Shown here: piece by piece, positions 37,841-40,305 of the stretch | How the letters are laid out: every line of letters starts with the position of its first letter | How positions within the stretch are numbered: the stretch's first letter is position 1 | Virus record (IMG/VR): IMGVR_UViG_2721755720_000005 | Direction: 5' to 3' (one strand) | Length of the DNA stretch: 40,305 nucleotides | Origin: a virus | Lineage: Duplodnaviria > Heunggongvirae > Uroviricota > Caudoviricetes | Made by a program: the position numbers and the translations under genes | Notes under the pieces: model-generated | What the model saw: the letters and a program-made list of their open reading frames with translations, nothing else | Databases searched by the model: none | Told to the model about the DNA's origin: nothing

Positions 37841-37906
37841 GTATCAAATAAGTTGCGTATCGGCGTTTTTCAGCGGTATCAAATGAAATGCAAACCGGTA
37901 TCAAAA
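37841..37906 (+). repeat. Right-end transposase-binding-like direct repeats, three copies of GTATCAAA(T/A)
   Basis: Copies at 37841-37849, 37876-37884, 37898-37906, each near a CGCCG motif; located between mom and the truncated host gene. Confidence 0.55.
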
Positions 37907-40305
37907 AAATCGCCGCGCTATATACCTTTTTCCAGAAACATACTCTGCTTAATGTCTTAGTGAACTACAGCGTGTTCGATATTAGCCAAACGCTACTAGT
38001 GATGCGACCGTACCAGATTGCCGCCACTGAGCGTATCTTATGGAAAATCAACAGCTCCTATAAAGCGAAAAACTGGTCTACCCCCGAAAGCGGTGGCTTT
38101 ATCTGGCACACAACCGGTTCTGGTAAAACACTGACCAGCTTTAAAGCCGCACGTCTGGCAACAGAACTGGACTTTATTGATAAAGTTTTCTTTGTGGTCG
38201 ACAGGAAAGACCTCGATTACCAGACCATGAAGGAATATCAGCGTTTTTCGCCAGATAGTGTTAACGGCTCGGAAAATACAGCAGGTCTTAAACGAAATCT
38301 GGATAAGGACGATAACAAAATTATCGTCACCACTATTCAGAAACTTAATAACCTGATGAAAGCAGAAAGCGACCTGCCTGTATACAATCAGCAAGTGGTG
38401 TTTATATTTGATGAATGCCACCGCAGCCAGTTTGGAGAAGCGCAGAAAAACCTGAAGAAGAAATTCAAACGCTATTATCAGTTTGGTTTTACCGGTACCC
38501 CTATTTTCCCGGAAAACGCTTTAGGTTCAGAAACGACCGCCAGTGTATTTGGTCGTGAATTGCATTCATATGTTATTACCGATGCGATTCGAGATGAAAA
38601 AGTGCTTAAATTCAAGGTGGACTACAACGATGTGCGGCCACAGTTTAAGTCTTTAGAGACAGAAACCGACGAGAAAAAACTGAGTGCGGCTGAAAATCAG
38701 CAGGCGTTTCTTCATCCCATGCGTATACAGGAAATTACGCAATATATTCTGAATAACTTCCGCCAGAAGACCCACCGTACTTTCCCAGGTTCCAAAGGCT
38801 TTAATGCCATGCTGGCAGTGAGTAGCGTGGATGCCGCGAAAGCCTATTACGCGACGTTTAAACGGTTACAAGAGGAAGCAGCTAATAAATCGGCTACCTA
38901 TAAACCGCTGCGTGTTGCGACAATCTTCTCCTTTGCCGCCAATGAAGAACAAAATGCCATTGGTGAAATTTCCGATGAAAGTTTTGATACCAGCGCAATG
39001 GACAGCAGTGCTAAAGAGTTTCTTGACGCTGCAATTCGTGAGTATAACAGCTATTTTAAAACTAACTTCAGCACCGAGAGTAACGGTTTTCAGAACTACT
39101 ATCGTGATTTAGCCCAACGGGTTAAAAATCAGGATATCGATCTGTTAATTGTCGTTGGGATGTTTTTAACCGGCTTCGACGCTCCAACATTAAACACGCT
39201 ATTCGTCGATAAAAACTTGCGTTTTCACGGCCTGATGCAGGCATTTTCCCGCACCAACCGCATTTATGACGCGACTAAAACCTTCGGTAATATCGTCACG
39301 TTCCGGGATCTGGAACGCTCAACCATTGATGCCATAACGCTGTTTGGTGACAAAAATACCAAAAATGTGGTTTTAGAAAAGAGTTATGCAGAGTATATGG
39401 AAGGCTTTACAGATGCTGCCACTGGCGAAGCTAAACGCGGCTTTATGGCAGTAGTTTCAGAACTGGAACAAAAGTTCCCTGACCCTGCCAGTATTGAAAG
39501 CGAAAAAGAGAAAAAAGACTTCGTTAAACTGTTTGGTGAATACCTGCGTGCCGAGAACGTCCTGCAAAACTATGATGAATTTGCCACGCTGAAAGCCCTG
39601 CAACAAATCGATCTTAGCGATCCTGTTGCAGTAGAAAAATTCAAAGCAGAACATTATGTGGATGATGAAAAGTTCGCTGAATTGCAAACGATTCGTCTCC
39701 CTGCTGAACGCAAGCTCCAGGATTATCGTTCTGCCTATAACGATATTCGCGACTGGCAGCGCCGTGAGAAAGAAGCTGAGAAAAAAGAGAAATCAACCAC
39801 TGACTGGGATGACGTAGTTTTTGAAATCGATTTGCTGAAGTCTCAGGAAATAAACCTGGATTATATCCTTGGACTTATTTTCGAACACAACAGACAAAAC
39901 AAAGGTAAGGGCGAAATGACCGAAGAGGTCAAGCGCTTAATTCGTTCTAGCCTTGGTAACCGTGCCAAAGAAGGTCTGGTGGTCGATTTTATTCAGCAAA
40001 CGAACCTGGATGATTTGCCGGATAAAGCCAGCATCATTGACGCGTTTTTTACCTTTGCTCAACGCGAACAGCAACGTGAAGCAGAAGCCTTGATCAAAGA
40101 AGAAAATCTCAATGAAGAGGCGGCGAAACGCTATATTCGCACGTCTTTAAAACGCGAATACGCCACCGAAAATGGCACGGAATTAAACGAGACATTGCCA
40201 AAACTCAGTCCGTTAAATCCGCAATATAAGACGAAAAAACAGACGGTTTTCCAGAAGATCGTCGCGTTTATTGAGAAGTTTAAAGGTGTAGGCGGGCAGA
40301 TATAA
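37888..40305 (+). pseudogene. hsdR: Type I restriction enzyme R subunit (HsdR), 3-prime portion only; apparently split by the prophage insertion
   Basis: 805-aa ORF with SF2 helicase motifs TGSGKT, FDECHR and FTGTP; motif I sits about 78 aa from the ORF start whereas HsdR proteins carry roughly 230 aa of nuclease domain before it; the first codons are read-through from phage end sequence. Confidence 0.8.

Follow-up and report, generated by a model that had tools for sequence, protein, structure and literature searches.

The stretch of DNA analysed here (the window, 40,305 nucleotides) ends in an open reading frame of 805 amino acids that carries the helicase motifs of HsdR and adjoins the right end of a Mu-like prophage. 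The question raised by this locus is whether the frame is what remains of a type I restriction gene that was split by the phage, or a protein that is short by nature and merely lies beside it. A preliminary description of the sequence favored the first reading. From the comparisons reported here, we are highly confident that an Sp18-family Mu-like phage inserted in the chromosomal EcoR124-family hsdR of Escherichia coli M18 and split the gene, with restriction predicted to be lost and methylation to be kept.

Origin of the window and composition of the 805-residue frame

A megablast search of complete E. coli genomes returned a single full-length match of 100% identity, on the reverse strand of the chromosome of E. 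coli M18 (NZ_CP010219.1). M18 is a mouse isolate, and its record is a closed chromosome with one copy of the prophage. The window opens within the prophage, where the operator region separates the repressor gene from the ner-like gene, and the left prophage junction is absent from it; the left prophage end and its flank were taken from the source record, outside the window. Matches listed for genomes other than M18 begin only at position 37,923 of the window, and there they are annotated as full-length HsdR.

The 805-residue frame runs on the plus strand from an ATG at position 37,888 to a stop codon that is the final codon of the window (37,888–40,305). The first 12 codons (37,888–37,922) are phage DNA and cross the innermost of three GTATCAAA repeats, as the preliminary description had noticed of the phage-end repeats. 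They are in frame with HsdR residues 246–1038, to which residues 13–805 are identical. The same description had placed the start of the feature at position 37,841, which is inside the prophage end; the true boundary between phage and host DNA lies between positions 37,922 and 37,923.

The frame contains the HsdR helicase motifs I, II, and III that had been reported for it, with TGSGKT at residue 76, FDECHR at residue 174, and FTGTP at residue 201. Pfam models for ResIII (E = 2e-42), SWI2_SNF2 (E = 1.5e-54), a T1R_D3-like domain, and EcoR124_C (E = 2.9e-72) match the protein, the last over its full 260-position profile. The HSDR_N nuclease domain was not found by Pfam in the frame. In the intact allele of strain WAT, HSDR_N occupies residues 30–219, and motif I is at residue 309, 233 residues further from the start than in the 805-residue protein, which bears out the proposed N-terminal truncation. 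Because the nuclease domain is absent from the same polypeptide, the frame is best filed as a fragment of a member of the EcoR124 (IC) HsdR family, and not as a functional member.

Expression of the chimeric frame

Between mom, the last prophage gene, and the ATG of the chimeric frame, RNA folding reveals a hairpin with a 13-bp stem, flanked by an A-run and a U-run (37,825–37,871, plus strand). The region 37,790–37,925 has a folding energy of −37.2 kcal/mol (z = −4.2), and none of 200 shuffled sequences folds as well. A simple terminator scan of positions 36,500–38,300 had passed over this hairpin, which has a loop of more than 8 nucleotides. The hairpin is likely to be the intrinsic terminator of the com-mom transcript. 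A consensus scan of the plus strand over 36,500–38,300 gave no sigma-70-like promoter, and no Shine-Dalgarno sequence could be read before the ATG. Because of the upstream hairpin, the lack of a plus-strand promoter, and the lack of a Shine-Dalgarno sequence, the chimeric frame is probably silent.

If the frame were expressed, as could happen when com-mom transcription in the lytic cycle runs on past its terminator, a nuclease-less HsdR of ~92 kDa could dock on the methyltransferase and translocate DNA, with a dominant-negative or altered function. The frame is open from its phage-encoded ATG, it retains the helicase, helical, and EcoR124_C domains in full, and mom is transcribed toward the junction. 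However, a strong hairpin with its U-run stands between mom and the ATG, no promoter-like site was found in the scanned part of the plus strand, and there is no ribosome-binding sequence before the ATG. Also missing from the fragment is Lys-220, the EcoR124I residue that touches motor-bound ATP and couples nuclease to motor activity (PMC4454674), and the split locus encodes no intact HsdR with which the fragment could compete. Expression with such an effect is therefore very unlikely in our judgment.

The prophage and its choice of target

The remainder of the window is occupied by the Sp18-family Mu-like transposable prophage (1–37,922, plus strand), with boundaries that were set by alignment to the uninterrupted locus. 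The total length of the prophage is 38,747 bp, so that the window omits its leftmost 825 bp, which hold the c repressor gene and the left end. The attribution of the event to Mu-type transposition is supported by the MuA-, MuB-, Ner-, Com-, and Mom-type proteins that it encodes. All five genes are on the plus strand. The ner-like early regulator gene (177–407; Pfam HTH_35, E = 1e-21) is directly upstream of the gene for a MuA-type transposase of 695 residues (410–2,497; Mu-transpos_C, E = 1.9e-17; HTH_Tnp_Mu_1, E = 1.2e-8), and this is followed by the gene for a MuB-type AAA+ target-DNA activator of 310 residues (2,573–3,505; Phage-MuB_C, E = 8e-25; AAA_22). At the other end are com, the translational activator of mom (36,903–37,103; a Com family protein in RefSeq, record positions 3404675–3404875), and mom itself, a DNA-modification and anti-restriction gene that is the last before the right end (37,057–37,794; Pfam Mom, E = 1.9e-77; "protein mom" in RefSeq). 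The prophage also has genes for CI-repressor-, Gam-, and Mor-type proteins and a complete head and tail gene set, and RefSeq annotates 55 phage coding sequences in the prophage with no internal pseudogene. A scan of the whole window with ARAGORN and with Rfam at the gathering threshold gave no hits. A tRNA-like element annotated by PGAP was recovered with a local Rfam scan.

The prophage has in common with Mu the MuA-type transposase, the MuB-type ATPase, the ner-like regulator, a repressor gene that points leftward, and the position of com-mom, with no further gene before the right end. Its family also shares with Mu the insertion into many unrelated genes, a short target duplication, and the inactivation of the target gene. 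When the first 25 kb of the window were searched by megablast, Mu itself was not among the hits. These 25 kb are ~92% identical to regions annotated as "inserted Mu-like phage" in Stx phages, and the segment with mom and the right end is ~94–96% identical to Sp18 of E. coli O157 Sakai and its relatives. The M18 prophage, Sp18 from O157:H7 Sakai, and the Sp18 relatives in STEC belong to one phage family and have the same end sequences and gene order. In contrast to the Sakai prophage, which interrupts sorM, the M18 prophage is in hsdR; the M18 copy also has TA at its left tip, not TG, and is without the Gin-like recombinase gene that is annotated in several Sp18 relatives. Sp18-like phages have been described as intact, not circularizing, transposable, and variably located (PMC2669165, PMC7430833, PMC10132054).

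Sequence related to the mom and right-end segment is present in at least 226 genomes, and the target genes differ between those inspected. Relatives of the family adjoin or sit in irp1, flgL, sorM, torZ, xdhA, bglJ, ydhR, ygfK, a dcyD-like gene, and other genes, and these many unrelated sites show that there is no fixed att site. The choice of hsdR as a target looks like chance. Selection could be considered instead, if loss of restriction were of benefit to the phage or helped the host to take up other mobile DNA. The phage does carry the anti-restriction gene mom, and the gene halves without decay are compatible with a recent event that was retained. In contrast, the hsdR junction is found in M18 only, 1 of 5,426 complete genomes, other insertions of the family lie in unrelated metabolic, flagellar, and phage genes, and a resident prophage gains nothing obvious from the loss of restriction in its host. 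A selected insertion therefore seems highly improbable to us.

Reconstruction of the intact hsdR

The DNA to the right of the prophage is the 3' part of an EcoR124-family (type IC) hsdR (37,923–40,305, plus strand), corresponding to nucleotides 735–3117 of the gene and residues 246–1038 of the protein, and all 2383 of its 2383 nucleotides are identical to the WAT allele. It encodes the two RecA-like motor domains, the helical domain, and the C-terminal domain. At the matching locus of strain WAT, there is an uninterrupted hsdR of 3117 nucleotides that encodes 1038 residues, and the gene order is AbiE-like genes, DUF4942, hsdM, hsdS, hsdR, tRNA-Leu, ahr, and yjgR.

The preliminary description had pointed to the flank beyond the left prophage end as the place where the 5' part of the gene should be sought. 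Nucleotides 1–739 of hsdR are directly beyond that end, 825 bp outside the window, and are 100% identical to the intact allele. The 5' fragment reads residues 1–246 of HsdR and 25 phage-encoded residues, followed by a stop codon. Directly upstream of it, again outside the window, hsdS and hsdM are intact. When aligned to the intact gene, as had also been proposed, the two M18 halves rebuild the 3117-nucleotide hsdR exactly, with no base missing or changed compared with WAT. The 2841 nucleotides upstream (hsdM, hsdS, and spacer) likewise have no mismatches between the two strains, and the 2 kb downstream of hsdR have 52 differing positions. The insertion may be recent, as is suggested by the presence of zero substitutions in either half of hsdR. 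The RefSeq annotation of M18 contains both fragments as pseudogenes, one adjoining mom ([quoted passage not shown]) and the other at the opposite prophage end beside the repressor gene ("type I restriction endonuclease, missing C-terminus").

The HsdR subunit of EcoR124I (PDB code 2W00) has 1038 residues, like the intact allele, and the two proteins align end to end with a few dozen substitutions. The four-domain layout of the EcoR124I and EcoR124II subunits is common to the intact allele, and the gene order here is hsdM-hsdS-hsdR. EcoR124 is located on plasmid R124, whereas the system of M18 and WAT is chromosomal, beside a tRNA-Leu gene, and in M18, unlike in EcoR124I, hsdR is interrupted behind residue 246. 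In EcoR124I, the nuclease domain contains the catalytic residues Asp-151, Glu-165, and Lys-167, a QXXXY motif at residues 179–183, and Lys-220, and it is followed by two RecA-like domains and a helical C-terminal domain that is thought to contact the methyltransferase (PMC4454674). Alignment to EcoR124I HsdR shows that Asp-151, Glu-165, Lys-167, the QXXXY motif, and Lys-220 are all conserved in the intact allele. All of them are on the 5' fragment and none is in the frame of the window. The whole PD-(D/E)XK nuclease domain is thus on the 5' part, and in M18 it is separated from the 3' fragment by 38.7 kb.

These comparisons bear on the idea that the 805-residue frame encodes an HsdR-like motor protein that is short by nature, has no nuclease, and simply happens to adjoin the prophage. 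The frame is intact from ATG to stop and has kept all motor and C-terminal domains, as such a protein would. However, the phage end supplies its first 12 codons, its sequence from residue 13 onward equals residues 246–1038 of the uninterrupted 1038-residue protein of WAT, and the missing 739 nucleotides are at the other end of the prophage. In addition, the megablast search of complete E. coli genomes found matches to 88% or more of the query in 1,243 genomes, and full-length HsdR is the annotation in those that were inspected. A naturally short N terminus, which the preliminary description had named as a finding that would speak against a split gene, is refuted by the WAT locus, the flank comparison, and the base-by-base identity, and we assign it a negligible probability.

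Prophage ends and the length of the target duplication

The ends of Mu contain the transposase sites L1–L3 and R1–R3, and this layout was used for comparison. At the right end of the M18 prophage, a pattern search and script located the three GTATCAAA repeats at positions 37,841–37,848, 37,876–37,883, and 37,898–37,905 of the plus strand, none of them more than 82 bp from the tip. Three further copies, inverted (TTTGATAC), are at the left end and start 17, 112, and 164 bp from its tip. The arrangement of these putative transposase sites resembles that of R3/R2/R1 and L1–L3 of Mu. The right terminus of the prophage reads ...GCGCTATA-3' (37,915–37,922, plus strand), and the phage sequence that is shared with relatives inserted elsewhere ends at position 37,922.

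At the insertion site, the left flank ends with nucleotide 739 of hsdR and the right flank begins with nucleotide 735, and TACCT is present at both junctions. The right copy, TACC or TACCT if the fifth base is included, is at positions 37,923–37,927 of the plus strand (hsdR nucleotides 735–739), as determined by flank alignment. A target duplication of 5 bp, as in Mu, had been anticipated in the preliminary description. TACCT does occur at both junctions, but nine other insertions of the family indicate that the true duplication is the 4-bp TACC.

Ten insertions were compared junction by junction: M18, M3, 96_1414B, B1_2, Sakai, SS TX 313-1, STEC299, CI5, DLI.5a, and AF39. An exact duplication of 4 bp is found in all ten (TACC, CGCA, TTAC, TTCC, TAAA, TTCT, TGCT, TGTG, GTAC, and TACA) when the phage ends are taken as T(G/A)TAACC...GCGCTATA. 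The fifth base agrees in 3 of the 10 insertions, M18 among them, which is the rate of chance. When the empty sites in flgL and torZ were rebuilt with a 4-bp duplication, they matched the intact genes at 100% over 296 nucleotides. Since the fifth base agrees at the chance rate, the T that follows the left copy is read as phage DNA and the duplication of the family as 4 bp; on this comparison, the 5-bp match in M18 is partly a coincidence, and its fifth base appears to belong to the left end of the phage. Two other assignments, both with 5 bp, were tried and rejected because they fail at most junctions: in one, the phage ends are (G/A)TAACC...GCTATA, and in the other, the duplication starts with the last A of the phage. 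The base that precedes the left copy of the duplication is a C in 8 of the 10 insertions. In the Sakai record, the boundaries of Sp18 are drawn as if an imperfect 5-bp repeat, TAAAT/TAAAG, had been assumed.

The flanks in M18 thus overlap by exactly the short duplication that is typical of the family and rebuild the intact gene without change, on a closed chromosome with a single prophage copy, and we virtually discount the idea that the junctions are an assembly artifact or that hsdR was truncated by deletion before the phage arrived, for which there is no specific support beyond the principle that repeated mobile elements can misassemble.

The termini of Mu are TG...CA, and its target duplication is 5 bp. 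In the Sp18 family, the right terminus is GCGCTATA in all ten insertions and always finishes with TA-3', and the left end is TGTAACC in seven and TATAACC in three, including M18. The 5'-TG...CA-3' rule for termini does not hold for this family, where the right end is TA-3' and the left end starts with TG or TA, and the duplication of 4 bp in all ten insertions differs from the 5 bp of Mu. A literature search for 4-bp duplications by Mu-like phages gave nothing relevant, and in the Sp18 literature that was searched, the length of the duplication is not stated.

The Sp18 family may therefore transpose with target cuts staggered by 4 bp and with TA-3' as the right terminus, and some copies, M18 included, would have TA-3' at both ends; we judge the chances that this reading of the aligned ends is correct to be evenly balanced. 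Production of the fusion of the phage ATG to HsdR residues 246–1038, acting as a nuclease-less motor on the methyltransferase, is less likely than this. Textbooks characterize Mu by its 5-bp duplication and by a conserved CA at the termini, and the 4-bp stagger and the TA-3' end depart from both. If the variant is real and undescribed, it would represent a natural variant of MuA with a different active-site spacing and end recognition. The 4-bp duplication and the non-CA terminus are the sole points of possible interest to the transposition specialist, and the main conclusion is unaffected by them.

Predicted loss of restriction in M18

On the best reading, the phage integrated by DDE transposition at codon 245/246 of hsdR. 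The insertion parts the N-terminal nuclease domain (residues 1–246) from the ATP-dependent translocase and the C-terminal domain (residues 246–1038), and the nuclease domain is now on the left side of the prophage, fused to the 25 phage-encoded residues. Cleavage by a type I enzyme is taken to need the nuclease and the motor in one HsdR that is docked on M2S1, and therefore neither fragment should restrict. A search for a complementing IC-family hsdR in M18 gave a match in one place on the chromosome and none on plasmid A (57.6 kb), of which the first 50 kb were covered. The hsdM and hsdS genes are upstream of the insertion and identical to those of a strain with an intact system, so methylation should continue. 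From these gene sequences, the type IC system of M18 is predicted to be r-minus m-plus.

The same phenotype is known from cloning strains such as those with hsdR17 or hsdR514, where the loss of HsdR alone leaves the M2S1 methyltransferase active. In those strains the type IA EcoKI system is affected, by a point or deletion allele, whereas the predicted r-minus m-plus state of M18 would be due to a prophage that entered a type IC system in nature.

Mu-type transposition classically inactivates genes by insertion, and this clean example of it is ordinary and raises no new question. Sp18-like phages and EcoR124 HsdR proteins are both well-described families, and both halves of hsdR are already annotated as pseudogene fragments in RefSeq. 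A literature search for Mu-like insertions in hsdR gave nothing relevant. For the biology of M18, the predicted natural r-minus m-plus state would mean that foreign DNA is taken up more easily and that the methylation signature persists, and this prediction may be useful for genetics or methylome work on the strain.

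Target duplication and termini of the Sp18-family prophages

The junctions of ten Sp18-family Mu-like insertions were compared, using the right junction of the M18 prophage (window positions 37915-37927), its left junction (L002) and the loci of the other insertions (L004-L016). In all ten, the target duplication is exactly 4 bp, not 5 bp, and a fifth base agrees at both junctions in just three of them. The phage ends across these insertions read T(G/A)TAACC...GCGCTATA, so that their right terminus is TA-3' and not CA-3'. Three of the ten copies, the M18 prophage among them, carry TA instead of TG at the left terminus. 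The base ahead of the left copy of the duplication is a C in 8 of the 10 insertions.

Features within the M18 prophage

Several Sp18-family relatives have a Gin-like recombinase gene annotated beside the tail-fibre genes, and an invertible host-range segment has been described for Sp18, the prophage of E. coli O157:H7 Sakai. In contrast, no such gene is annotated beside the tail-fibre genes of the M18 copy (window positions ~32000-33200, compared with L012, L013 and L016), which resembles the copy of strain CI5 in this respect. Because of this, the host-range segment of the M18 prophage may be locked in a single orientation.

Between the tail-fibre region and the com/mom interval lies a plus strand ORF of 689 residues (positions 33170-35239), annotated by PGAP as DUF6645. 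The ORF contains a Pro/Ser/Thr-rich linker, PSPDTPSTPSPDTPSTPP, and is kept in all relatives inspected. Its product could have an accessory role or act at the surface.

A tRNA-like element on the minus strand (positions 17280-17359) matches the Rfam tRNA family RF00005 with 31.5 bits, the gathering score being 29; it was detected neither by ARAGORN nor by an Rfam scan of the whole window. The acceptor, D and T arms are well formed, but the anticodon region is aberrant and over-long. PGAP labels the element "tRNA-OTHER" in the M18 copy and in all relatives inspected, where it is always antisense, with a head-morphogenesis gene on one side and a virion-morphogenesis gene on the other.

Host loci and related lysogens

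The hsdMSR genes are situated within a cluster of defence genes adjoining a tRNA-Leu gene, outside the window to the left of the prophage (L003 and L002). This cluster also holds AbiEii-type toxin genes and DUF6088 genes, together with a DUF4942 gene, a gene for an HNH endonuclease and part of a phosphorothioate-dependent restriction gene. Between M18 and WAT, a strain with an intact hsdR at the same locus, the restriction-modification genes are 100% identical, whereas downstream of hsdR the two strains diverge by 2.6%; this suggests movement or recombination of the island independent of the backbone.

In M1 and M3, two mouse isolates with accession numbers near that of M18, a prophage lies in flgL. 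It shares 99.8% identity with the M18 copy over the left 825 bp, but only ~96% at the mom/right end. The flgL gene of M18 is intact and matches the flanks of the M3 prophage exactly; likewise, hsdR is intact in M3 and identical in sequence to the two halves in M18. Similar hosts therefore appear to have been lysogenised independently by related phages.
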